Shown here one piece after another: positions 171 to 61,354 of a DNA stretch of 64,000 nt. Numbering within the stretch: position 1 is the stretch's first letter; every line of letters starts with the position of its first letter. The DNA comes from an uncultured Bdellovibrionales bacterium (GTDB lineage Bacteria; Patescibacteriota; Minisyncoccia; Moranbacterales; DUUL01), in the NCBI GenBank assembly GCA_964556685.1, contig CAZKWX010000002.1, positions 10,541 to 74,540 of the forward strand, read 5' to 3'. The notes beneath the pieces were generated by a model. It did not search any database and was not told the DNA's origin. It saw only the letters and a program-made list of their open reading frames with translations. Made by a program: the position numbers and the translations under genes.

Positions 171-175
171 TTTAG

Positions 176-276
176 TAGAATTATGAATTAAGAATTATGA
201 ATTAAGAATGGGAATGCGGAATACAGAATCTGGAAATAAATTCCAAATTCAAAATTCCAAATTCGCAATTCAGTAA
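176..276. repeat. AT-rich imperfect palindromic intercistronic repeat, copy A (S14-L6 spacer)
   Basis: A 31-bp block gaattaagaattatgaattaagaatgggaat is identical to the block at 847-877. It is followed by aattccaaattc-type repeats that are roughly the reverse complement of the first half. Confidence 0.7.
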
Positions 277-280
277 AAAT

Positions 281-826
281 ATGTCTCGTATTGGAAAACA
301 ACCTATTGAAATCCCAGACGGAGTGACGGTCAAGCTAGACGGTCAGGATTTGGAAGTGAAAGGACCAAAGGGAAGTTTGAAAATGGAAGTGAGCTTTGAA
401 GTGGAAGTGAAAGTGGGTGAAAAAGAAATCGAAGTGAGCAAAGTCGGCAAGACCAAAAATGCGCCGGCCCTTTGGGGAACCACTCGAGCGCTGATTCAAA
501 ATATGATTGTTGGTGTGACTGATGGTTTTGAAAAAGAACTTGAATTGCACGGAGTGGGCTACAAAATGGCAGTGCAAGGAAAAAAGTTGGCACTCAATTT
601 AGGATTTTCTCATCCAATTGATTTGGACATTCCTGAAGGGCTGGAAGTCAAAATTGAGAAAGAAAAGTTGACTGCTTCTGGAATTGACAAGCAGGCGGTG
701 GGAGAGTTCGCTGCCAAGATCAGAGTTTTGCGACCAGTGGAACCATATAAAGGAAAAGGATTTCGATATGTAGGTGAATATTTTGTTAAGAAAGAAGGAA
801 AACGGGCGGTTGGAGAAGAAGCGTAA
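281..826 (+). CDS. rplF: 50S ribosomal protein L6
   Basis: MSRIGKQPIEIPDGVTVKLDGQDLEVKGPKGSL... is a typical L6 N-terminus. The gene sits in a spc-operon context. Confidence 0.95.
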   Translation: MSRIGKQPIEIPDGVTVKLDGQDLEVKGPKGSLKMEVSFEVEVKVGEKEIEVSKVGKTKNAPALWGTTRALIQNMIVGVTDGFEKELELHGVGYKMAVQGKKLALNLGFSHPIDLDIPEGLEVKIEKEKLTASGIDKQAVGEFAAKIRVLRPVEPYKGKGFRYVGEYFVKKEGKRAVGEEA

Positions 827-2187: not shown

Positions 2188-2613
2188 ATGCAGATTCATA
2201 GTTTAAAATCCAGAAAACTTAAGTCCAAGAAGAGGGTTGGCCGAGGTGGCAAGAGAGGCACCTATAGTGGCAAGGGAATGAAAGGACAAAAATCTCGCAG
2301 TGGCTATTCCAAGCGAGCGACTTTTGAAGGTGGCCGAACAACTTTGGTGGCGCAAACCAAAAAGGCTCGAGGGTTCACTTCAAAAAAAGATCAGGTTCAG
2401 GTGGTAAATTTGGAAGAAATCCAAAAAAAATATAAGAGTGGGGAAGAGGTTTCGCCCAAGACCTTGGGGGAAAAGAATATCGTCAAGAAAAGTCATCTTC
2501 CGATAAAGATTTTGTCGGTTGGAAAATTGGCAAAAAAGGTTATACTTAAAGACGTGGCCTATTCGAAAGAGGCGAAGAAGAAGGTGGAGAAGGCGGGAGG
2601 AGAAGTTCGCTAA
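2188..2613 (+). CDS. rplO: 50S ribosomal protein L15
   Basis: MQIHSLKSRKLKSKKRVGRGGKRGTYSGKGMKGQKSRSG... is an L15 signature. Confidence 0.93.
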   Translation: MQIHSLKSRKLKSKKRVGRGGKRGTYSGKGMKGQKSRSGYSKRATFEGGRTTLVAQTKKARGFTSKKDQVQVVNLEEIQKKYKSGEEVSPKTLGEKNIVKKSHLPIKILSVGKLAKKVILKDVAYSKEAKKKVEKAGGEVR

Positions 2614-2707
2614 CGCGACAGTATCAGGTATTGTGTATCATGTATTAGGTATAAATTTCCGAATACCTAATGCTGGATACTTGATACATAATACGTATTC
2701 GTACTCT

Positions 2708-3212
2708 AAAATTTAGCAAGTGAGATTTGGGAGAATATAAAAAATATCAATCAATCACTAAGAGGAGGTTTCTCATGGCAGATGAAACACATTCGCTTCA
2801 AGTAATGATCTATGGAGGTGCGCTTGATGGATTTTTTTCCTTGATTGCGAAAACAATGAAAACTCTTGATGATCCACGAGAAAAACACCACAATGATTCT
2901 TTGGGATATATTTCTTCACGAATTGCACAATTTTTGAAAGAAAAATTCGAAAGAGCTCTCATTGAGAACGGTTATTTTGAAAATGAAGTTTCCGGAAAGA
3001 TTGATGAAGTAATGGATTTTTTCAGGAGAATCGAGAATGTGGAAAAGTAACAAAAAAGGAAATTTGAAAGAAGTGAGCAGGTCTCGATGAACGCATCTGA
3101 AAACCTGCTCCCTAAATCTCACTGGCTAAATTGCATGTCATCCTCGCGAATGCGGGGATCCATTAGGTCAGGGAGTATCGAACAAATAGATTCCCGCCTT
3201 CGCGGGAATGAC
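2708..3212 (+). other. repeat-bounded cassette 1: IR-L (2708-2732), small ORF, IR-R (3110-3132), conserved hairpin H1 (3137-3212)
   Basis: aaaatttagcaagtgagatttggga at 2708 is inverted relative to ccctaaatctcactggctaaatt at 3110. H1 arms are gtcatcctcgcgaatgcgggga and ttcccgccttcgcgggaatgac. The whole architecture repeats at 3230-4075. Confidence 0.6.
2775..3050 (+). CDS. hypothetical small protein (91 aa) inside cassette 1
   Basis: AGGAGG Shine-Dalgarno at 2762-2767, 7 nt upstream of ATG 2775. No recognisable family. The longer ORF-track start at 2727 lacks an RBS. Confidence 0.5.
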   Translation: MADETHSLQVMIYGGALDGFFSLIAKTMKTLDDPREKHHNDSLGYISSRIAQFLKEKFERALIENGYFENEVSGKIDEVMDFFRRIENVEK

Positions 3213-3283
3213 AAATGTAATGTTCATTTAAAATTTAGCAAGTGAGATTTGGGAATCTTTGAAAATGGGAAAGGAGTACAAAA

Positions 3284-3574
3284 ATGAAAGAAATTATAGA
3301 ACTTTTATTAAAATGTATGGCTGTTATAGAGTTGTTTTCAACGACCAGATCGATACTTCAAGACAGTCAGAGCAGTCAAATGTTGGATTTTTTCCAGGAA
3401 GACTTGGACCGACTGAACTGGTTGTTCATAGATTTAAGATTGGACTCAGATACCAAACAGACAGAAATTGAAAGATTTAAAAGAACATTAGGAAATGACG
3501 TGGAAGAGCTTGTAAAAATTGTAAACTTCTTAAAGACAGATGGAACTAGGAGACTAATAATTTCCTTGAACTAA
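3284..3574 (+). CDS. hypothetical small helical protein (96 aa), paralog of 3614..3916
   Basis: AAAGGAG RBS 7 nt upstream. The N-terminus EIIELLLKCMAVIELFS resembles EVEILMKCAVAILISYC of the next ORF. Confidence 0.5.
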   Translation: MKEIIELLLKCMAVIELFSTTRSILQDSQSSQMLDFFQEDLDRLNWLFIDLRLDSDTKQTEIERFKRTLGNDVEELVKIVNFLKTDGTRRLIISLN

Positions 3575-3613
3575 GCCAATAGAGGAATTACAGGTTATAG
3601 AGAGGTGTTAGTT

Positions 3614-3916
3614 ATGACAAAAGAGGTTGAAATTCTAATGAAGTGCGCTGTGGCTATTCTAATAAGCTATTGTGGCATAGCTGATTTAAACCTAACAACG
3701 ATAGAGTATTATCAAGCAGTGAATGATATTCTTAAGAAAATTGATTCTGCGTTGATTCGACTCGGTACATCTCTAGATGATGAATTACCGAAAGTAAGAG
3801 AAATAAGTGTTGAAGAATTCTTAAGTGTTGAAGAATATTGTAGATATATAGACGTATTGAATGATCCAGCAATGTTTGAAAAATTCATATCGGTTGTCGC
3901 TGGACCAGTAAATTAA
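3614..3916 (+). CDS. hypothetical small helical protein (100 aa), paralog of 3284..3574
   Basis: AGAGAGG RBS followed by ATG 3614. The ORF track used GTG 3605, which is too close to the RBS. Confidence 0.5.
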   Translation: MTKEVEILMKCAVAILISYCGIADLNLTTIEYYQAVNDILKKIDSALIRLGTSLDDELPKVREISVEEFLSVEEYCRYIDVLNDPAMFEKFISVVAGPVN

Positions 3917-4124
3917 TTTGGGGGATGAAAGGAAATAAAATTTCTAGTCCTCCCCAAATCTCACTGGCTAAATTAAATGTCATTCTTGTGTCGCATCGAG
4001 TGCGGCATAAACTACAGCGGGGATCCATTGGGCTGAGGCATCAAGCTAATAGATTCCCGCCTGCGCGGGAATGACAAACAGGGAAATACAAAATATAAAA
4101 TACTAGCTACTAGCTACTAATCTC

Positions 4125-5396
4125 GTGTGGGATAAATTAACTCAAATATTCAAAGTCAAAGACCTGCGGAACAAGATTTTCTTCATTTTGGGAATCTTGA
4201 TTATTTTTCGTTTGGCGGCTAACATTCCCATTCCTGGAGTAGATGCTTCACAGCTAAAGTCCTTTTTTGAAAACAATCAACTGTTTGGTTTCTTGGATCT
4301 TTTTTCTGGGGGTGGTTTGAAAAATATCTCTATTGTGATGTTGGGAGTGGGACCATATATTACTTCTTCGATCATCATGCAATTGATGACGATGATCTCA
4401 CCTCGCATGGAGCAGCTCTATAAGGAAGAAGGAGAAGCAGGACGACAGAAATTTAACATGTGGACACGGTATCTAACTGTGCCACTGGCCATGATGCAAA
4501 CCTTTGCCATGATCACGCTCTTCAAAAATTCAGGACTTTTGGGAAGTTTGGTGACGTTTGATTATGTGGTCATCATCGGTACAGCTACTGCTGGAACGAT
4601 TTTCCTCATGTGGCTGGGTGAATTGATCACCGAAAAAGGAATCGGCAACGGAGTTTCACTGATCATTTTTGCCGGAATTGTGGCAGCGTTGCCGAGCACA
4701 GTCCAACAGCTGATTGCCACCTGGGATTCATCTCAATTGCTGACCTATCTGGCTTTTGCTGCGCTGGGTTTAATCACAGTTGCGGGAATTGTGGTGGTCA
4801 ACGAAGGACAGAGAAATATCCCCATTTCGTTTGCACGAAGAATTAGAGGAGGGAAGACCAGCGGGGGAAGCAGCTCTCATCTGCCACTGCGGGTGAACCA
4901 AGCCGGAGTGATTCCCATCATCTTTGCCATGTCAATCATGCTTTTCCCAGGAGTGATCGCCAATTTCTTTGCTGGCTCTTCCAACGAAGTAATTGCCGGT
5001 GCCGCTGGTTGGGTAGCTGATGTTTTTGCCAATCAATTATTCTATGGATTGATCTATTTCTTCTTGGTTGTAGCTTTCACCTATTTCTACACCGCGGTGA
5101 CCTTTGATCCCAAAAGTGTGTCAGAAAATCTTCAACGTCAGGGAGGATTCGTCCCTGGCATTCGTCCAGGCATGCCGACCATGGAATACTTGAATTATAT
5201 TGTAAATCGGATTACACTGTCTGGCGCGCTATTTTTGGGTTTGGTAGCCGTTTTGCCTTTTATTGTTCAAGGATTCACTGGAGTGCGAGCGCTCACCATT
5301 GGGGGAACAGGAATTTTGATTGTGGTTTCGGTGGTGATTGAAACGATGAAACAAATCGAAGCACAGTTGGTGATGAGGGATTACGAGGGCTTTTAG
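4125..5396 (+). CDS. secY: preprotein translocase subunit SecY (GTG start)
   Basis: Multi-pass membrane protein with ...GGGLKNISIVMLGVGPYITSSIIMQLMT... SecY motifs. Position after L15 matches the conserved spc order. Confidence 0.95.
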   Translation: MWDKLTQIFKVKDLRNKIFFILGILIIFRLAANIPIPGVDASQLKSFFENNQLFGFLDLFSGGGLKNISIVMLGVGPYITSSIIMQLMTMISPRMEQLYKEEGEAGRQKFNMWTRYLTVPLAMMQTFAMITLFKNSGLLGSLVTFDYVVIIGTATAGTIFLMWLGELITEKGIGNGVSLIIFAGIVAALPSTVQQLIATWDSSQLLTYLAFAALGLITVAGIVVVNEGQRNIPISFARRIRGGKTSGGSSSHLPLRVNQAGVIPIIFAMSIMLFPGVIANFFAGSSNEVIAGAAGWVADVFANQLFYGLIYFFLVVAFTYFYTAVTFDPKSVSENLQRQGGFVPGIRPGMPTMEYLNYIVNRITLSGALFLGLVAVLPFIVQGFTGVRALTIGGTGILIVVSVVIETMKQIEAQLVMRDYEGF

Positions 5397-5551
5397 CCCA
5401 ATTAGTAATTACTAATTATGAATTACTAATTAAATAAGCGAGCGTTGTCCGCCTTCGCTCCGATTGCTCGGAGCTGCGAAGGACAGGTGCCGTGGTTATT
5501 ACCTCAGTCCCGCGGAGCGGGATTTCGTTACGCTCAACCTTCAAAACATAC

Positions 5552-5622
5552 GCGGGATTCGTATAGTGGTAGTACATCAGCCTTCCAAGCTGACGGCGCC
5601 AGTTCGATTCTGGTATCCCGCT
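5552..5622 (+). tRNA. tRNA-Gly (anticodon UCC)
   Basis: Cloverleaf read by hand. The acceptor stem is gcgggat/atcccgc. The T-arm is ccag-ttcgatt-ctgg. The anticodon stem is tcagc/gctga with loop cTTCCaa, giving anticodon UCC. The discriminator is T and CCA is not encoded. Confidence 0.8.
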
Positions 5623-5670
5623 CAGGATTAAGAAGTAATAAATTACTTTTTAATTACTTCTTGTAAAAAC

Positions 5671-5847
5671 ATGGGCAGAAGAAAAATCGAAGAAAAAAAC
5701 ATAAGAAAATTGTCTCAGGTTGGTGAGGGAAGCTTAGCGATTACAATTCCGATTGAATTGATCCGAAAGCTTGGTTGGAGGCGGAAACAAAAGGTGGTTG
5801 TTTCAGAAAAAGGAGGGAAGATTATTATTGAGGACTGGAAGGGGTAG
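5671..5847 (+). CDS. AbrB/MazE/SpoVT-family DNA-binding protein (58 aa), antitoxin-like
   Basis: MGRRKIEEKNIRKLSQVGEGSLAITIPIELIRKLGWRRKQKVVVSEKGGKIIIEDWKG matches the swapped-hairpin AbrB fold pattern. It is below the ORF-track size cutoff. Confidence 0.55.
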   Translation: MGRRKIEEKNIRKLSQVGEGSLAITIPIELIRKLGWRRKQKVVVSEKGGKIIIEDWKG

Positions 5848-5984
5848 AAGTTATCAATGGTCAGTGATCAATGATCAATTATTTTTCAATGACCAGTGAT
5901 CAATTGACTGCTGATTCAAACTGGAAAACTTTTTATGGAGAATCATTTCTGGGAGATGGGCTTAAATCTTATTTAACAGGGTAA

Positions 5985-6248
5985 ATGGATCTATTAATCA
6001 AAATCGAACATCCCAATATCACTTTAGAACTGAACGAAAAAAAAGAAAACATTGACAGGGAAGAGTGGACTGATGAAAATGACATGTCGACAAAGCTCTT
6101 AGCAGCTATTGACAAACTTTGCTCACGGAATAAAATAGAGATACAACAAATTGATAAAGTGAAAGTTGAATCTGATCATGAATCTTTCACATCAACAAGA
6201 ATAGCCAAAGCCGTTTCAAAGACGGTCGGTTGTTGTCTAGATGCTTGA
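5985..6248 (+). CDS. hypothetical protein (87 aa)
   Basis: Open frame only. No motif recognised. Confidence 0.35.
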   Translation: MDLLIKIEHPNITLELNEKKENIDREEWTDENDMSTKLLAAIDKLCSRNKIEIQQIDKVKVESDHESFTSTRIAKAVSKTVGCCLDA

Positions 6249-10069: not shown

Positions 10070-10112
10070 GATTTAGATTGCTAGAATAATTGTAATCATT
10101 ACGATAAAAATC

Positions 10113-10203
10113 GACAAAGGCAGTATTATTTTCACGCATAAGTTTGCTTCGGGATTGAGTCTTGAAGGTGCAAACTTGGCGAGAAAATAACACCGCCTTT
10201 GTC
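10113..10203 (+). promoter_or_regulatory. conserved structured leader element, copy 2 (upstream of rpoC)
   Basis: Same core as copy 1. In addition it is enclosed by the outer inverted repeat gacaaaggc (10113) / gcctttgtc (10195). Confidence 0.65.
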
Positions 10204-10244
10204 TCCAAGAATGTATTTTATACAAAATACCTAACACTAACCCT

Positions 10245-13200
10245 ATGCAACAAGAAGGTATCACCAAAATTTCTGATTTTAACGCTGTGCAATTGAAAGT
10301 CGCTTCACCCGATACAATTTTAGATTGGTCCAATGGCGAAATTCTGCGACCTGAAACAATCAACTATCGAACTCAACGTTTTGAAAAGGACGGGCTTTTC
10401 TGTGAAAAGATTTTTGGTCCAGCCAAAGACTGGGAATGTTATTGTGGAAAGTATAAAAGGATTCGTTATAAAGGTATTGTTTGTGACAAATGTGGCGTGG
10501 AAGTGACCAAGTCAATTGTGCGAAGAGAACGTATGGGCCATATTGGTTTGGCCGTGCCAGTCTCTCACATCTGGTTTTTGAGAGGCGTGCCCTCAAGAAT
10601 TGGATTGACTTTGGACATGTCGATACAGGAACTGGAAAAAGTGATCTATTTTGCCGGTTATATTATTATTTCTGTCGACGAGGAAGCTCGAAAAGAGTCA
10701 CTCAAGAGTTTGGAGAAAGAAAAAAAAGTCGCACTGAAAGAAGCTGAAAGCACAGCAGAAAAGGAAAGAATCAAAAAAACTTTTCAGGAATCCAAAGACG
10801 GACTTCGCGGTCTGGCCGAAAAGCAAACGCTTTCAGAAGTGGATTATCACAAAGTTTCAATGAAATTTGGTCACGTTTTTGAAGCTTCCATTGGAGCTGA
10901 AGCAATTGAAAAGCTGCTCAAAGAAGTTGATTTGAAAAAAGAAATCAGAAAGATCAAAGATAAAATGGAAAAAGGCAAAGGAGCGGACAAGAAAAGGCTA
11001 GCTAAACGACTCAAGCTGATGTCTGGATTTGTTAAGTCAGGAATTAATCCAAGCTGGCTGATGCTCAGAGTGGTGCCAGTGATTCCTCCTGATTTGCGAC
11101 CAATGGTGCAACTCAATGGAGGTCGTTTTGCTACATCTGACCTCAATGACCTTTATCGAAGAATTATCAATCGAAACAATCGATTGAAAAAACTGATTGA
11201 ATTGGGCGCTCCAGAAGTTATTCAAAGAAATGAGAAAAGAATGCTTCAGGAAGCGGTGGACGCATTGATTGACAACAATGCTCGAAGAAGTCAGGCCCAA
11301 GTGGCGGCTTCCACTGGACAGCGAAGAGCTCTCAAATCTGTCTCTGATATGCTCAAAGGAAAGCAGGGACGTTTTCGACAAAACCTTTTGGGTAAACGCG
11401 TTGACTATTCCGGTCGAAGTGTGATTGTAGTAGGGCCAGAATTGAAACTTCACCAGTGCGGAATTCCTAAGAAAATGGCTTTGGAATTGTTCAAGCCTTT
11501 CATTATCAATAAGTTGATTGAAGGAGAACATGCTCACAATGTTCGAACAGCCGGTCGGATGGTGGATGCGGAAAAGGAAGAGGCCTATGAAATGTTGGAT
11601 GACATCATTGATCATCACTATGTGTTGCTCAATCGTGCCCCGACTCTTCACCGACTCTCTATTCAAGCTTTTCAGCCGGTGCTGATTGAGGGGAAAGCTA
11701 TCCGAATTCATCCTTTAGTATGTTCAGCTTTTAATGCTGACTTCGATGGTGACCAAATGGCGGTTCATGTTCCGCTGACTAGGAAGGCGCGATTGGAAAG
11801 CGCTGAGTTAATGCTTTCTTCTAGGAACTTGCTCAAGCCTGCCAGTGGTGATCCAATCACAGTTCCATCTCAAGACATTGTGTTGGGAGTATACTACATG
11901 ACCAAAGCGATTGATGGTCTCAAAGGAGAAGGAAAAGCCTTCGGAAACATTGATGAAATAATTGGAGCCTATCAAATGGAGCTGATTGATTTGCGTGCCA
12001 AGATCAGGCTATATCGGAACAGCAAGGAAGTTGAAACTACAGCTGGTCGAGCACTTTTGAATGACATTTTGCCTGAAAAAATGCGCTACATCAACGAAGA
12101 GATGACCAAGGGAAGTCTCAAAAAATTGGTAGCGGAATTTTTACAAACAGGTGGAACTGAAAAAGCAGCCATTTTCGTTGATAAACTGAAAGCTCTTGGA
12201 TTCAAATATATTACTCGATCTGGAATCAGTTTGGGTATGGATGATTTCGAAGAGCCTAAAGACAAACATAAGATTTTTGAAGAAGCTGACAAACAAGTGG
12301 AAGAAATTCATAATCAATACGATGCCGGACTTTTGACTGACGAAGAACGAAAAACACGCGTAATTGAAATTTGGAATGAAACTAAGAATAAAGTTACTGA
12401 AGAGGTAAAACGGGCAATTAATCCTGGAGGACCAATTCATGCCATGATCCATTCCAAAGCTCGCGGTTCTGAGGCAGTGGTGGTGCAAATGTCTGGAATG
12501 AAAGGATTGGTGGCGGGTCCAACTGGTGAAACAATTGAACTTCCAATCAAAGGATCTTTGAAAGGTGGCTATAATGTTTTGGAATATTTCAGCTCAACTC
12601 ACGGTGCTCGAAAAGGTATGGCTGACACGGCTTTGAGAACAGCGACTGCTGGATATCTTACTCGAAGGTTGGTGGATGTGAGTCAGGATGTAGTGATTCG
12701 AGAAGAAGATTGCAAAGACAAAGAAGGTGCCTATATTTATCGACAAGACTCAGAGCAAATTGGACAAAGTTTCACTGATCGAATCGAAGGTCGAGTAGTA
12801 GTCGAAGATGTGATGTTGCCTCACGGCAAAAAACCACTGGTTGGAAAAGGAGAGATGATTTCTATTGAGCAAGCTGCAATGATTGAGGAAAAAGAAGTTG
12901 AAAAGATTAAGATCAGAAACTTGGTGACTTGCAAAACCAAACGAGGAATTTGCCAGAAATGCTATGGAAAAGATTTGGGACGCAATGACACAGTGGCCCT
13001 TGGTCAAGCGGTGGGAATTGTGGCCGCTCAAGCGATTGGTGAGCCAGGAACACAGCTGACCATGCGTACCTTCCACATTGGCGGTGTGGCCGGAACTGAC
13101 ATTACTCAGGGTCTTCCTCGAGTAGATGAAATCTTCGAAGCCCGAAGCCCGAAAGGTGAAGCGGTGGTGGCTGAATTTGATGGAAAAGTTGAAGAAGTGG

Positions 13201-14238: not shown

Positions 14239-14605
14239 TTCTCTACTAATTATGAATTTCGTACGAATATACGAATGTACGAATATCGCATAAAATATAG
14301 AATAAGTTATAGAATCTATTTAAAACTATCAATCAATCTAGCATGGACTAGCGAATTTGTAAAGCGCATAGCGCTGGTATTACGTATAAAGTATTAGGTA
14401 TTATGTATACAATGAATTAGCGAGATTTAATATTTTCCTTTATACTTAATGTGTGTTTGGACTGATGAAATAATCATTTTTTTGCTGAATTTCGAAACCT
14501 TATTATTCTTCAAGCTGGTTTCTCAATTGTTGCTCAAAAATAATTATTCCATCAGCGTTGAGTTTTTATACTTAATACATGATACGTTATACATAATACA
14601 TAGCA

Positions 14606-27133: not shown

Positions 27134-27565
27134 ATGCAAGAGGTAACAGTTATAATTCCTCATGGTTGTTGTCCGGGAATGCCAGGCAAATTTGTATTAA
27201 AACAAGATAGCAGGGGAAACGTTATTCTTCCTCCGAAAACAACGGGTACTTGCACCGGATGTCGCAAGGAAGATATAGGGACTGCCTTTGGAATTGAGTC
27301 CAAGGATGGCGAGATGGCCTCAATCCTCAATATGTTTGGCTGTCCCTTTTGTGGCAAAGGTAGAATGACAATGAGACTACTCATTAAGCATCCTAGGGCC
27401 ATGGAAGGCAAAGATAATTCTTCTGCGGCTGACGTTAAAATCGAATTCCTTGTTCAGGGCGAAGGGGGCAATGACGACCGAATCTCTTGTGACAACTGCA
27501 ATATGGAGTTAGTTGTTTCTGAGACGGGCTCTGTCCTTTTAAGTTGCCCTTGGCAAGAAGACTAA
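27134..27565 (+). CDS. hypothetical Cys-rich small protein (143 aa; CCPG, CTGC, CPFC, CDNC pairs)
   Basis: Strong RBS taggagg upstream. Four CxxC-like pairs suggest Zn-ribbon(s). Local GC is somewhat higher than in the flanks. Confidence 0.55.
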   Translation: MQEVTVIIPHGCCPGMPGKFVLKQDSRGNVILPPKTTGTCTGCRKEDIGTAFGIESKDGEMASILNMFGCPFCGKGRMTMRLLIKHPRAMEGKDNSSAADVKIEFLVQGEGGNDDRISCDNCNMELVVSETGSVLLSCPWQED

Positions 27566-37132: not shown

Positions 37133-37432
37133 TTTTGTTTTTATCGGTTATTTATATAATTATAAATAAATTTTAAAAAGTACGCAAGGAATATTTTTTT
37201 ATAACGAAATGTGTTGAATACTTGAATTATATGGGATATGACCTAAACTAAATAAATGGGATGATTGGGGATTATAAGCTATGAATTAAGATTTAAGAAT
37301 AAGTTTTTAAGAATGGAGAATATACGTAACTTTTGCCCCGTAAAATTTCGCTTAAGCGAAATCACGGGGTAAATATTATTGCTCACTCTGAAAAATCGCT
37401 TCGCTCATTCGGGGCAGGCATTGATCACTACT

Positions 37433-39811
37433 ATGAATAATATTAGAAACTTTTGTATTATTGCACATATTGATCATGGGAAGTCGACACTAGCCGATCG
37501 GCTTTTGGAGTTAACTGGGACGATGGAAAAACGGCAGATGAAGGAACAGGTTTTGGATACGATGGACTTGGAACAGGAGAGAGGCATCACTATCAAGCTC
37601 CAGCCTGTTACTATGACCTATCGGCCATCGCAGATCAATGCAGATGTAACGCGGATAAGTGCGGATAAAGAAAAAAGCAAAGTGGAGGGTGGCTTATTAT
37701 ATAAGGAGTTAACTTACAAAGTAAGAGGACTATTCTTTGACGTTTATAATAATCTGGGACCAGGGCACAAGGAAAGTGTTTACGGCAATGCTCTCGAAGA
37801 GGAATTTTTGAAAGCTAATCTTAGTTTTGATAAAGAAAAGATAATAGACATTTTATATGGGGACAAAAAGGTTGGCACCTATCGTCCAGACTTTGTTGTT
37901 AATGAAAAGATAATTATTGAATTGAAGGCTTTGCCTTTCATTGGCAAAGCAGAAAAAAAACAGACCTGGCATTATTTGAAGGGGTCTCAATATAGACTGG
38001 CACTTCTGGTCAATTTCGGCAAAACAGAATTACAAGTTGAAAGAATAATCTATGATGAAGCTCGTGATAAAAAAATCATCCGCAAAAATCAGCGTTCAAA
38101 TCTGCAAAAATACGCATATCAGCTCAATTTGATAGATACTCCAGGACATGTTGATTTTAGTTATGAAGTTTCACGATCACTAGCAGCAGTGGAAGGGGCG
38201 ATTCTTTTGGTTGATGCGACGCAGGGTGTGCAAGCTCAAACATTGGCTAATTTGTATCAGGCGATAGATCAGGGACTGACAATTATTTCAGTGGTGAACA
38301 AAATTGATCTTCCCAATGCAAATGTGGAAAAGACCAAGAAGGAAATAGTTAATATTCTGGATTACAAAGAAGAAGATGTCATCTGCGCATCTGGAAAAAC
38401 GGGTGAGGGAGCAGAGGAAATTTTGCAGGCGATTGTAGAAAGGATCCCATGCCCGCAATCGCCTTTGGCGAATGCGGGAATTTCCAAGTTACAAATTACA
38501 AGTTCCAAACAAAAACCAAATTCGAAGTCTGAAATTCAGAATTCTGAAAAAATGCCACTTCGTGCTTTGATTTTCGACAGTAAATATGATTCATACAAAG
38601 GCGTTTTAGCATATGTGCGAATTGTTGACGGGCAAGTGCAAGCAGAAGATGACATTTATTTGATGGCCGGCCAAAAAGATGCTCATGTAATCGAAGTGGG
38701 GAAGTTTTCACCAGAGCTGATAAAAAAAGACAAATTAAAAGCTGGTGATATTGGCTATATCGCCACTGGGCTCAAGTCAGTGGAACAGTGTAAAGTTGGA
38801 GACACCGTGACAATGATCAATGATCAATATTCAATATCCAATGAAAAAATAAAAGATAATAAGATCAAGCCGCTTCCGGGTTACAAGGAGGTTCGGCCGA
38901 TGGTCTATGCCAGTTTCTATCCCACTGAGGGAGAAGACTATAATCAATTTCGTGATGCGCTGAACAAATTGAAGCTCAATGATGCAGCGTTGGCTTTTGA
39001 AGGAGAAAGTTCGGTGGCTTTGGGAAGAGGATTTCGCATTGGATTTTTGGGACTGCTTCATTTAGAAATTATCAGGGAACGGCTATCGCGAGAGTTTGGT
39101 TTCGAGCCAGTGATCACAACTCCATCAGTGGTTTATGAAATAGAAAAATCAGATAAATCAACCGAGAAAATATTCTCCGCAGTGGAAATGCCGGATGCCA
39201 ATCACATCAAAAAAATCAAAGAGCCTTTTGTCAAATTGGACATCATCACTCCATCAGAATATATGGGCAAAGTGATGGAGCTGATTCAGGATACCACGCG
39301 GGCAAAATACATTGCCACGGAATACATCGACGATGATCGAGTCATGCTTTCCTATGATGCACCGCTCAGCGAAGTGATCATCAATCTTCACGATGGCATC
39401 AAATCGGCTTCTAGCGGGTTCGCTTCCTTTTCATATGAGTCGACTAAATATCGAGCTTCAGATCTAGTGCGGATGGATGTCTATGTGGCGGAAGAAAAAG
39501 TGGAAGCTTTTTCTCAGATTGTGCCCAAAGAAAATGTTACCAAGGAGGGAGCTCGAGTGGTCAGGAAACTCAAAGACGTGATTCCGCGGCAAAACTTTTT
39601 GGTCAAACTTCAAGCAGCGGTGGGTGGCAAGTTTGTGGCTCGGGAAAATATTTCGGCCTATCGAAAAGATGTGACGGCCAAACTCTATGGCGGCGATGTC
39701 ACTCGCAAGCGCAAGCTGTTGAAAAAACAAAAGAAAGGGAAGAAAAGGATGAAGGGGGCAGGAAAAGTGGATATTCCCCAAAAAGCATTTTTGGAGGTGC
39801 TGAAGAGATAG
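37433..39811 (+). CDS. lepA: elongation factor 4 (LepA) carrying a nested GxxExxY PD-(D/E)xK domain and a low-complexity insertion
   Basis: G1 is [11 protein letters not shown]3 is [10 protein letters not shown]. The C-terminus [23 protein letters not shown] is typical of LepA. The length is 792 aa versus about 600 for typical LepA. Confidence 0.93.
37622..38113 (+). other. in-frame GxxExxY-family (PD-(D/E)xK nuclease fold) domain nested between the G2 and G3 motifs of LepA
   Basis: [45 protein letters not shown]...[19 protein letters not shown]...[18 protein letters not shown]. It contains GxxExxY, PD and ExK motifs in the family-typical order. Confidence 0.8.
38481..38545. repeat. in-frame simple repeat (acaaattacaag / aaattc units) in lepA
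   Basis: tttccaagttacaaattacaagttccaaacaaaaaccaaattcgaagtctgaaattcagaattctg encodes [23 protein letters not shown]. Confidence 0.8.
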
Positions 39812-40577
39812 CGCGCTAGTATCAGGTATTTTGTATTAAGTATTGTGTATGACGTATATACGTCCGTATATACGTTGGTATGTACTACGAAATGGCTCCT
39901 CATGGCGCTGTTTTTATTTTGAAAAACAAAAACCTAGACCTCACTACCATATAACCTTATATGGTAAAATTGGTTTTTTGGACTAAAAAAGGGAGATCCA
40001 ACGTTTCTGATAGTTAGATTCTCCCATTATTGGCCGTCCACTGTCGGTCAAGAACAAAAATTCAAGCTATGAATGAAAAGGGCGGGTCTTAAAGCTTATA
40101 TACTGGCAGGGACAACCCTTTCTGTTCATAAGCGAGGTTCCCGTAGGCGAGCCCCACCTCCGAAATTGCTGAAAGCAGATTTCCCTTACTCGATTTTTTG
40201 TAAAATCACGACAGTTTCTGGGAAGATAGTCGCCTAGGAGTATTATCACATTATTACTCCCTTACTTGTAAGCTCAGGACGTTGACTTTCAGTGATATAG
40301 TCCTTTCCCACAGATCGGTCGATCTATCTTCGTTGGTGCTGATCTTCCATGGACGTAATAGGTAATCGATTTTACACATGTTCCTACTACTGAAGCAATA
40401 ATTTAACAGCCTGGACATACTGTTAAAATGCCTCTATTACCAGCACCGAAAGCTTATATTCAATTAAGTACTACCTGTATTTAAGCACTTTTAGGATGTC
40501 TTGTCAATGTTTATGAAAATTGGCCTAAAAACTGCAAGTTTGGCTATTTTTTGCTATAATTACATCGAATAGACTTA

Positions 40578-43755: not shown

Positions 43756-44298
43756 CTAAGTGATAATCTTTTTTTTGCGAAAATACATTCGAATCACTAA
43801 ATGAATGTTTTCAAATGTCGCATTCCGAATGCAAACCCGAGGGGGATCTTTCGCGGTTGGTTCAGCTCCGCTGATGCATTTGCTTAGCAATAGAGCATCA
43901 GCAGGACTGGGAGTGTAGGCTACCAGTCCAAAGAATGTCATTCCTTTCTCTTTACTTCGGCTCGAAAAGCTTCTGATAGCCAAGGGGAAGCCTATGTCCA
44001 TTGCATTAAGGGCCTCCTCTTTTTCCCTGATCTTAACGACAGTTATTTCTTTAAGGCCATGCATGGCAAGCTCGATAGCTGCCGGGAAGCTAGCTAAAAA
44101 ATATCCTTTTCTCTCTTCAAAATTACCTCGGATGTGCTCAATTTTTTTAGGTTTTTTCAGTTTGCTCATGTCTGTCATCACATCTGCGATGACCTTTTTC
44201 AGCGCCACAACCCTCTCTTGCCTGGTCGGTAGCTTACTAATCTCTTTCAACCCTCTTGTTTTGGAAGAGGGTTTGTGAGTAGATTGTCTTTTTTTCAT
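43756..44298 (-). CDS. hypothetical protein (180 aa), same strand as and upstream of dnaA
   Basis: Open frame with a basic N-terminus. No motif recognised. Confidence 0.45.
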   Translation of the reverse strand: MKKRQSTHKPSSKTRGLKEISKLPTRQERVVALKKVIADVMTDMSKLKKPKKIEHIRGNFEERKGYFLASFPAAIELAMHGLKEITVVKIREKEEALNAMDIGFPLAIRSFSSRSKEKGMTFFGLVAYTPSPADALLLSKCISGAEPTAKDPPRVCIRNATFENIHLVIRMYFRKKKIIT

Positions 44299-56286: not shown

Positions 56287-56318
56287 TCCATAACAGAAGT
56301 TACGCAGTCTATGTTTGA

Positions 56319-56396
56319 TTTTCCGCAAGCAAGGTATTTTTGCCAAATGTTCACTCCGTTTCCTAAGGTGTCAAAAATACCTTGCTTGCGGGAAAT
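56319..56396 (+). repeat. long-stem hairpin element, copy 1 (22-bp stem, ~29-nt loop)
   Basis: ttttccgcaagcaaggtatttttg (56319-56342) is the perfect reverse complement of caaaaataccttgcttgcgggaaa (56372-56395). The loop ccaaatgttcactccgtttcctaaggtgt is conserved in copy 2. Confidence 0.85.
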
Positions 56397-61196: not shown

Positions 61197-61239
61197 AAAA
61201 TTACAAGGGTTGCGCACCTCCCCGCTTAACTTAACGGAA

Positions 61240-61318
61240 ATTTCCCGCAAGCAAAGCATTTTTGCCAAACGTTCACTTCGTTTCCTAAGGTGTCAAAAAT
61301 ACCTTACTTGCGGGAAAT
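61240..61318 (+). repeat. long-stem hairpin element, copy 2
   Basis: atttcccgcaagcaaagcatttttg ... caaaaataccttacttgcgggaaat. Same loop as copy 1. The stem has 3 mismatches. Confidence 0.85.
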
Positions 61319-61354
61319 TAGATACGGATTGGATAATTTCTAAACGTTACAAAA

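Follow-up and report, generated by a model that had tools for sequence, protein, structure and literature searches.

The dRS3 palindrome of Neisseria (ATTCCC-N8-GGGAAT) usually lies within a 28-nt sequence termed NTS (CGTCATTCCCGCGMAVGCGGGAATCYRG), and related SRM motifs occur across phyla in association with single-domain GIY-YIG nucleases, the Ssn family of 2025 (PMC11893778). These nucleases bind the hairpin in single-stranded DNA and cut it 3 nt upstream of the NTS; as SRMs are found nearby at only 71% of ssnA loci, the linkage between the two is not obligatory (PMC11893778). In the NIME unit (dRS3-RS-dRS3), two inverted copies of ATTCCC-N8-GGGAAT flank an RS element of 19-214 bp (PMC1797815). 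Here, we analyzed a stretch of 64,000 nt (hereafter the window; positions 10,541-74,540 of contig CAZKWX010000002.1, assembly GCA_964556685.1), in which an insert of ~1.4 kb separates the ribosomal protein gene rplO from secY and carries three orphan genes together with two hairpins that, by their motifs, belong to the NTS/dRS3 family. All coordinates are those of the window. As judged from the relatives of its SecY, of which the best match is 75% identical, the host belongs to Candidatus Moraniibacteriota within the Patescibacteria, or candidate phyla radiation (CPR).

The insert consists of two modules. Each of them runs from the left copy (IRL) of a 22-nt inverted repeat (IR) through one or two orphan open reading frames (ORFs) to an inverted right copy (IRR) and a hairpin, H. 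The three ORFs (91, 96 and 100 aa) are tiled on the same strand across both modules. An initial annotation made from the letters of this DNA had described such a two-unit, repeat-bounded architecture between rplO and secY, and we recovered every one of its elements in place:

2188..2613, + strand: rplO (ribosomal protein L15), the left flank, from the ORF list; Pfam Ribosomal_L27A is recorded for the identical product
2621..2694, + strand: spacer hairpin after rplO with 32-nt arms (RNA -27.1 kcal/mol, z -4.39)
2707-4078: the insert block, ~1.4 kb with three orphan genes, between rplO and secY
2710..2731, + strand: IRL1, left repeat of module 1
2775..3050, + strand: ORF91, an acidic helical orphan of 91 aa with the Shine-Dalgarno sequence AGGAGGT
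3111..3132, + strand: IRR1, inverted copy, with 3 nt between its end and the NTS-type arm of H1
~3136..3213, no strand assigned: H1, a doublet made of two inverted palindromes of the NTS/SRM (dRS3) type, with its left arm at 3136-3163 (+), its right arm at 3186-3213 (-) and a spacer of ~22 nt
3232..3253, + strand: IRL2, left repeat of module 2
3284..3574, + strand: ORF96, an acidic orphan of 96 aa with the Shine-Dalgarno sequence AAGGAG, atypical codons and low GC
3614..3916, + strand: ORF100, an acidic helical-bundle orphan of 100 aa with the Shine-Dalgarno sequence GAGGTG
3953..3974, + strand: IRR2, inverted copy that closes module 2, 95% complementary to IRL1 and IRL2
~3978..4076, no strand assigned: H2, the second NTS-type doublet, with an intact right arm at 4049-4076 (-) and a left arm interrupted by an extra hairpin of ~23 nt
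4125..5396, + strand: secY, the right flank, from the ORF list and relatives

Each arm of H is a GC-rich palindrome of the sequence TGTCATTCCCGCG(A/C)AGGCGGGAATCTAT, which can also be written as (T)GTCATTCCCGCG(A/C)AGGCGGGAATCTAT. A scan of the window with the degenerate SRM pattern HGTCWYN(0-2)YYVSBRHN(0-5)WNVSBRGN(0-2)RNCYNB (PMC11893778) returned exactly three matches, at 3136-3163 (+), 3186-3213 (-) and 4049-4076 (-). The arms fit this pattern exactly and the 28-nt NTS save for its first and last base. Moreover, the right arms are exact dRS3 palindromes, while in H1 the left arm is a variant, ATCCTC...GGGGAT, and does not satisfy the strict dRS3 definition, and the length of the H spacer falls within the range of the NIME RS elements. 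By these motifs, H is a known type of element, a doublet of the NTS/dRS3 type that resembles a NIME unit standing by itself. Like the NTS/dRS3 and NIME elements of Neisseria, it has two inverted arms around a short variable spacer and adjoins variable, probably acquired genes. It differs from them in the AT-rich patescibacterial host, in the absence of an ssnA nearby (a motif scan of the window and an inspection of its ORFs revealed no ssnA-like or GIY-YIG ORF) and in the off-pattern left arm of H1; in addition, each doublet comes with a further inverted repeat of 22 nt, a feature not described for NIMEs. The locus thereby extends the Ssn-related NTS/dRS3 hairpin family to the Patescibacteria, an established family seen here in a host and a combination that are both new.

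The initial annotation had likened H to the attC sites of integrons. This comparison gives way to the NTS/dRS3 family, as three of the four arms match the published SRM. What the locus does share with integron cassettes and pdif modules are small, promoterless-looking ORFs in one orientation, an imperfect palindrome at the end of each module and inverted sites that alternate. However, H starts with (T)GTCAT and ends with ATGAC(A), has neither R''/R' boxes (RYYYAAC/GTTRRRY) nor a GTTRRRY at the 3' boundary, and no IntI was seen in the window. Matches to Rfam families were sub-threshold throughout, and none of the known RNA families fits; the match to Francisella FtrB is explained by an NTS-like palindrome within this small RNA.

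Beyond this locus, H proved to be dispersed. The exact 24-mer of the right arm occurs in more than 120 stretches of viral contigs, often as inverted doublets 55-85 nt apart. When the whole insert was compared with phage and plasmid records by blastn, H alone was matched, in Legionella, Azospirillum, Neisseria gonorrhoeae and Photobacterium (records of the plasmid collection PLSDB) and in one Microcystis phage; the H1 match spans ~80 nt in the Legionella and Azospirillum records. H1 can also be aligned with the doublets of other organisms. Among 80 related secY loci that we sampled, one (L012) has a full doublet whose arms show the same variants, and three (L008, L025, L040) hold single NTS arms, in all cases without the 22-nt IR. 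The motif is rare in relatives, with 3 matches in 757 kb. The left-arm variant GTCATCCTCGCGAATGCGGGGATC was considered as a lineage marker and rejected, being present in high-GC viral contigs too. Contigs of the Logan collection break inside the H arms, with ends at 3186/3215 and at 4048, where contigs of four runs start, and the sole contig that reads through H2 has a single-nucleotide polymorphism in the arm. Such branches are expected wherever a de Bruijn graph runs into a dispersed repeat.

In contrast to H, the 22-nt repeat was found nowhere else. IRL1 and IRL2 share the sequence AATTTAGCAAGTGAGATTTGGG, and their identity extends to 26 nt with the flanks (2707-2732 and 3229-3254). The IRR copies are 91-95% complementary to IRL, a match that none of 100 shuffles reached. 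Position 9 separates the left from the right version of the repeat (A versus C) in both modules; as these versions are common to both, the boundaries of the two modules go back to a common ancestor. Homology between the modules is restricted to the 26 nt at the left and to 31 nt plus H at the right, where IRR and H, set 3-5 nt apart, form one contiguous conserved block (3108-3144 and 3950-3986). The sole difference between IRR1 and IRR2 (T/C) leaves this position paired, as G-U or G-C, but only on the + strand. A promoter scan gave no qualifying sigma-70 site in IRL. The initial annotation had proposed a search for further copies of the repeat, and none turned up in the rest of the window or the 9.4 kb past its end (73 kb of this genome), in the 80 related secY loci (895 kb), in the GTDB species representatives, in JGI metagenomes searched with exact and relaxed patterns, or in IMG/VR. 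Nine matches to the relaxed patterns were single and unpaired, and we attribute them to chance.

The arrangement of the insert is not a product of mis-assembly, since both of its halves were recovered in independent metagenome assemblies. Logan contigs from other sequencing runs cover L15, ORF91 and H1 in this order (L001, L085, L002), and a further contig covers H1, ORF96, ORF100, H2 and secY (L004), each at 99.9-100% identity. At this level, the arrangement is identical in runs of three SRA accession series. All contigs that hold ORF91 have it in the same orientation relative to rplO, and spurious junction-spanning ORFs, which would mark variant arrangements, are not on record. The two modules are not recovered equally often: in a collection of 15 billion proteins, the exact products of ORF96 and ORF100 are found on 1-2 contigs, as against 5-8 for L15, ORF91, SecY and the downstream small ORFs. 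This scarcity of module 2 reflects either natural polymorphism in populations or poor assembly between the repeats.

The three ORFs are likely real genes, given that they are tiled on the same strand in DNA of 34% GC, have strong Shine-Dalgarno sites and, in the case of ORF100, yield a confident structural model. The good ribosome-binding sites noticed at the outset hold up: all three ORFs have a Shine-Dalgarno match of at least 6 nt at the correct spacing, compared with only 2 of 41 host genes. The host itself is nearly free of Shine-Dalgarno sequences, with 35 of the 41 genes in the window lacking any match. The insert has a GC content of 0.34-0.35, while the host averages 0.40. In codon log-likelihood, ORF96 and ORF100 score 0.07 and host genes 0.27 ± 0.08, with ORF91 being host-like in this respect. 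On compositional grounds, the Shine-Dalgarno contrast, the lower GC and the atypical codons of ORF96 and ORF100 point to a foreign origin. Shine-Dalgarno-led genes in a host nearly without such sites offer a simple marker of recent acquisitions in genomes of this kind. Both host exceptions with a match of at least 6 nt are likewise ORFs without a family, a Cys-rich one of 143 aa at 27134-27565 (+) and one of 180 aa at 43756-44298 (-) beside dnaA, and these may also be recent acquisitions.

As the initial annotation had stated, the encoded proteins have no recognizable family. None of the three had a significant match in Pfam, PHROGs or PADLOC. Homology searches returned self-matches only, for ORF91 and ORF96 among 5.8 billion clusters and for ORF100 among 1.84 billion representatives (full HMMER), and phmmer found no match of the insert ORFs among all 5,555 ORFs of the 80 related loci. 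ORF96 is on record as one Logan contig and a shorter NCBI gene call. The structure model of ORF91 is all-helical and of low confidence (pLDDT 63), while the single-sequence model of ORF100 is a confident helical bundle (pLDDT 83) that showed no specific structural relative. The proposed paralogy of ORF96 and ORF100 found no support: their similarity is confined to 15 N-terminal residues (BLASTP E 0.03) and is equaled by 123 of 3000 shuffles (p ~0.04), and paralogy is unsupported for any pair among the three ORFs. Neither PADLOC nor structure comparison supports the suggestion of immunity-protein or toxin-antitoxin-like functions. The initial annotation had further reasoned that repeats unique to this locus, along with the same ORFs as ordinary conserved genes in related genomes, would point to a lineage-specific operon extension; the repeats are indeed unique in the collections searched, but no homologs of the ORFs were found, in relatives or elsewhere.

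We also inspected the rplO-secY junction in the relatives. The closest one available (L005, with the 75% identical SecY) has an empty spacer of ~60 nt, in support of the initial view of an insertion, and of one specific to this lineage, and the spacer measures 50-350 nt in most relatives. The accompanying claim of a near-inviolate junction does not hold for this group. Unrelated ORFs without a family occupy it in two relatives, one of 216-223 aa (L017, 5315-5986) and a membrane ORF of 79 aa (L010, 5707-5946). In two others, a family-less ORF of 206-210 aa lies directly upstream of secY with gyrB in the place of rplO (L019 and L020, ~5260-5910), and a different gene precedes secY in L006. In Moraniibacteriota, gene content seems to change repeatedly at this junction. 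This resembles the minimal mobile elements of Neisseria, in which differing short gene sets lie between the same flanking genes, here rplO and secY in several Moraniibacteriota; exchange by transformation, as in those elements, would be a conjecture at rplO-secY. Together with the unrelated insertions in relatives, the insert suggests that, in these reduced-genome bacteria, novel genes can land at rplO-secY and be tolerated there, and that hairpin repeats travel with such genes. Every known NTS copy of this genome sits on one small, foreign-looking insert in a highly conserved operon junction.

To the right of secY follow a tRNA-Gly(TCC) gene, a MazE/AbrB-like ORF of 58 aa and an orphan of 87 aa (5552-5623, 5671-5847 and 5985-6248), then rpoB-rpoC, and the usual adk-map-infA genes do not directly follow secY here. 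A tRNA-Gly-linked island at this place was considered and rejected, as there is no att-like repeat of the tRNA end.

At the level of RNA, IRR1, H1 and IRL2 fold into one composite hairpin of 143 nt (-66.8 kcal/mol, z -7.45). H2 reaches -46.5 kcal/mol as RNA (z -4.7), and H1 as single-stranded DNA -21.1 kcal/mol (z -3.75). A fold of the whole transcript (2600-4130) pairs IRL1 with IRR2 (p 0.91) and IRR1 with IRL2 (p 0.87). Stable long hairpins were also obtained for four of five other cistron spacers folded, namely upstream of rplF, between rpsE and rplO, between rplO and IRL1, and between rpoB and rpoC (z -4 to -7.7); for the L6-L18 spacer, stability was not significant (z -0.42). Spacer hairpins therefore look like a systematic operon punctuation. 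The one at 2621-2694, just after rplO, is an instance of this usual intercistronic punctuation of the host and lies outside the repeated modules; its repeat family differs from the module repeats and has partial copies at 14565-14585 and 39818-39836. In relatives, rplN (L014, 1908-2371), map (L055, 8069-8929) and a TrpR-like gene (L007, 8159-8771) are flanked by inverted repeats of 27-32 nt with at most 2 mismatches. These genes are bounded by repeats because hairpins of the same family occupy successive spacers; in this lineage, hairpin punctuation thus accounts for part of the 'repeat-bounded genes'. The long hairpins of the window (172-282, 2010-2155, 2614-2700 and 10100-10215) belong to several sequence families; 56318-56396 and 61239-61319 are copies of one family (ATTTYCCGCAAGCAARG...), identified as inverted repeats only. 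At the right edge of the insert, the right arm of H2 places ATGACA 17 nt upstream of TATAAA (4071-4099), which, with the arm as the -35, is a possible hybrid promoter for secY.

Taken together, the locus is a mosaic insert. It qualifies neither as an integron or pdif array nor as a proven system of mobile cassettes. The cassette interpretation of the initial annotation is borne out with respect to the two modules, their conserved boundaries and their unrelated cargo; attC sites, an integrase and other copies of the IR, which it also implied, are missing from what we searched. We read all translations of at least 120 aa by eye and listed the small intergenic ORFs; with ~16 ORFs scanned against Pfam and the rest judged by eye, neither the cognate integrase or recombinase looked for at the outset, including Xer, nor a transposase or a GIY-YIG protein was seen in the 64 kb. 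At present, the locus is a single, immobile-looking example, and mobility is unproven.

As a tentative account, which we regard as possible rather than probable, we propose that the insert was acquired horizontally, built by recombination and equipped with REP/NIME-like hairpin punctuation, and that it is tolerated through the action of these hairpins in cis on the read-through transcript. The apparent cassette boundaries would then be intercistronic hairpin punctuation, with one complete composite hairpin (IRR1-H1-IRL2) between genes and two half-sites, IRL1 at the left edge and IRR2-H2 at the right edge, that could pair into a 22-bp stem enclosing the insert as a whole. Recombination involving the repeats, as in NIME arrays and 'minimal mobile elements', would have assembled the mosaic, and not an integron, an Xer recombinase or a transposase. 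The hairpins would act on the ribosomal-operon transcript as other long spacer hairpins here presumably do, and by processing, stabilizing or insulating it they would allow three foreign cistrons to be tolerated upstream of an essential gene. REP, BIME and REPIN elements, known to stabilize mRNA and to give differential expression within operons, are comparable: in them, as here, inverted palindrome doublets form a long hairpin between the cistrons of an operon. On the other hand, no RAYT transposase was seen in the window, and the family found here is NTS and not an enterobacterial or pseudomonad REP. The rRNA intervening sequences of CPR bacteria are similar in that inverted repeats enclose an ORF and form a stem in the transcript, as in a 16S example from a relative (L006, described below); here, the insert lies between protein genes, so that RNA excision is not needed for function.

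Several observations weigh against hairpin punctuation as the whole explanation. The copies at the edges are half-sites and not complete hairpins, and the missing halves have left no detectable remnant: neither a third IRL before secY nor an IRR-H before IRL1 rose above shuffles. The identity of IRL1 and IRL2 over 26 nt, beside unrelated cargo, would be needless if only RNA pairing mattered, and so suggests common descent, sequence-specific recognition or a recent recombination event. The 73 kb known of this genome have all of their NTS copies within the 1.4-kb insert, compared with 3 in 757 kb of relatives, which argues that these hairpins came with the insert, or were attracted to it, and are not generic host punctuation. 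Finally, the scarcity of the module-2 ORFs (1-2 versus 5-8 contigs) could be a presence/absence polymorphism, i.e., mobility. These unexplained features keep rivals at the DNA level alive. An unlikely one holds that two non-autonomous elements with terminal inverted repeats and passenger genes, akin to MIC, tIS or MITE, were mobilized in trans by a transposase encoded elsewhere and landed side by side, each beside an NTS doublet. Correia elements and MITEs resemble the locus in their terminal inverted repeats, here of 22 bp, and the 143-nt IRR-H-IRL composite is of MITE size and shape, while IRL-cargo-IRR is reminiscent of the transposase-less cassettes between insertion sequence (IS) ends in MIC and tIS. 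The 91-95% match of the ends, their distinct left and right versions in both modules, the unrelated and foreign-looking cargo and the under-representation of module 2 in other assemblies would all fit. However, neither module is bordered by a target-site duplication (flanks TAA/GCA for module 1 and TAA/AAA for module 2, with no consistent direct repeat), no second locus with the IR was found in any of the collections searched above, no matching IS or transposase was seen in the window, and the contiguous IRR-H block fits a block duplication better than two independent insertions. A different and rather improbable scenario is that of a neutral relic, in which a local tandem duplication or template switch copied IRL and IRR-H around a single foreign three-gene fragment, leaving young repeats without function. 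Uniqueness of the IR, boundaries of common descent as indicated by the common left and right versions, and homology limited to the 26- and 31-nt blocks plus H agree with this scenario, but copying boundaries without the genes between them requires several ad hoc steps; the arrangement is stably maintained at 99.9-100% identity across the three SRA accession series, and the stability of the composite hairpin (z -7.45) is far beyond chance.

Slightly less credible still is a capture directed by the NTS, in which IRL-cargo-IRR was inserted or mobilized at single-strand breaks made beside NTS hairpins by an Ssn-type GIY-YIG nuclease. In both modules, the IRR stops exactly 3 nt short of the + strand NTS arm, on its upstream side (3132|3133 and 3974|3975), which is the published SsnA cut distance (PMC11893778), and two of the three nucleotides in between differ between the modules while the flanks are conserved. 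The confinement of the NTS copies to the insert, the presence of a single-domain GIY-YIG gene in the lineage (L006) and a linear order that is a circular permutation of a circle with two complete IRR-H-IRL hairpins would suit such a capture as well. We consider it just as doubtful that IRL-cargo-IRR-NTS is a new, recombinase-independent type of cassette, with the NTS doublet as capture or excision signal and a hairpin-specific GIY-YIG nuclease for ssDNA in the part that IntI has at attC. The window holds no ssnA-like gene, the register of the cut is extrapolated from the Neisseria enzyme, and the modules are not independent if the IRR-H block was duplicated, which makes the coincidence worth ~1 in 20. 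Furthermore, the known role of Ssn is to restrict transformation and not to catalyze insertion. Should the cut-site coincidence be meaningful, it would implicate Ssn and NTS in gene capture, and a true cassette would place foreign genes under the read-through transcription of a ribosomal operon in a CPR bacterium. The least probable of the accounts weighed here takes the four alternating 22-bp sites as the cores of a tyrosine or serine recombinase, as in pdif, inverton or shufflon systems. Their alternating orientation does resemble pdif arrays, the IR holds a weak internal dyad (AAATTT-N8-AGATTT), and recombination between the direct repeats IRL1/IRL2 or IRR1/IRR2 could delete a module, with module 2 being the under-represented one. 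But the dyad is merely 6 bp long in an AT-rich genome, the IR contains no 28-bp XerC-6-XerD core of the dif-like ATAA-N6-TTAT type, and no Xer gene or other recombinase was seen in the 64 kb. The uniform orientation of the ORF91 contigs speaks against inversion modules too, and recombination between IRL and IRR would be blocked by their mismatch in what is presumed to be the central region. The mosaic with hairpin punctuation remains the account that we tentatively prefer.

Two further insertions were noticed in this group. In the relative L006, an insertion bounded by a 20-nt IR (12444-12753) lies near the 5' end of the 16S rRNA gene and encodes a single-domain GIY-YIG protein of 86 aa (Pfam E 9e-17), with the size and architecture of Ssn nucleases. 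It shows that stem-enclosed ORF insertions and Ssn-sized nucleases both exist in the group. Within the window, the gene for LepA (EF4; 37379-39811, + strand) carries an in-frame domain of the PD-(D/E)XK nuclease superfamily at residues 109-222, inside the GTPase domain (Pfam PDDEXK_3, E 5e-31), a family otherwise known from ORFs in intervening sequences of 23S rRNA.

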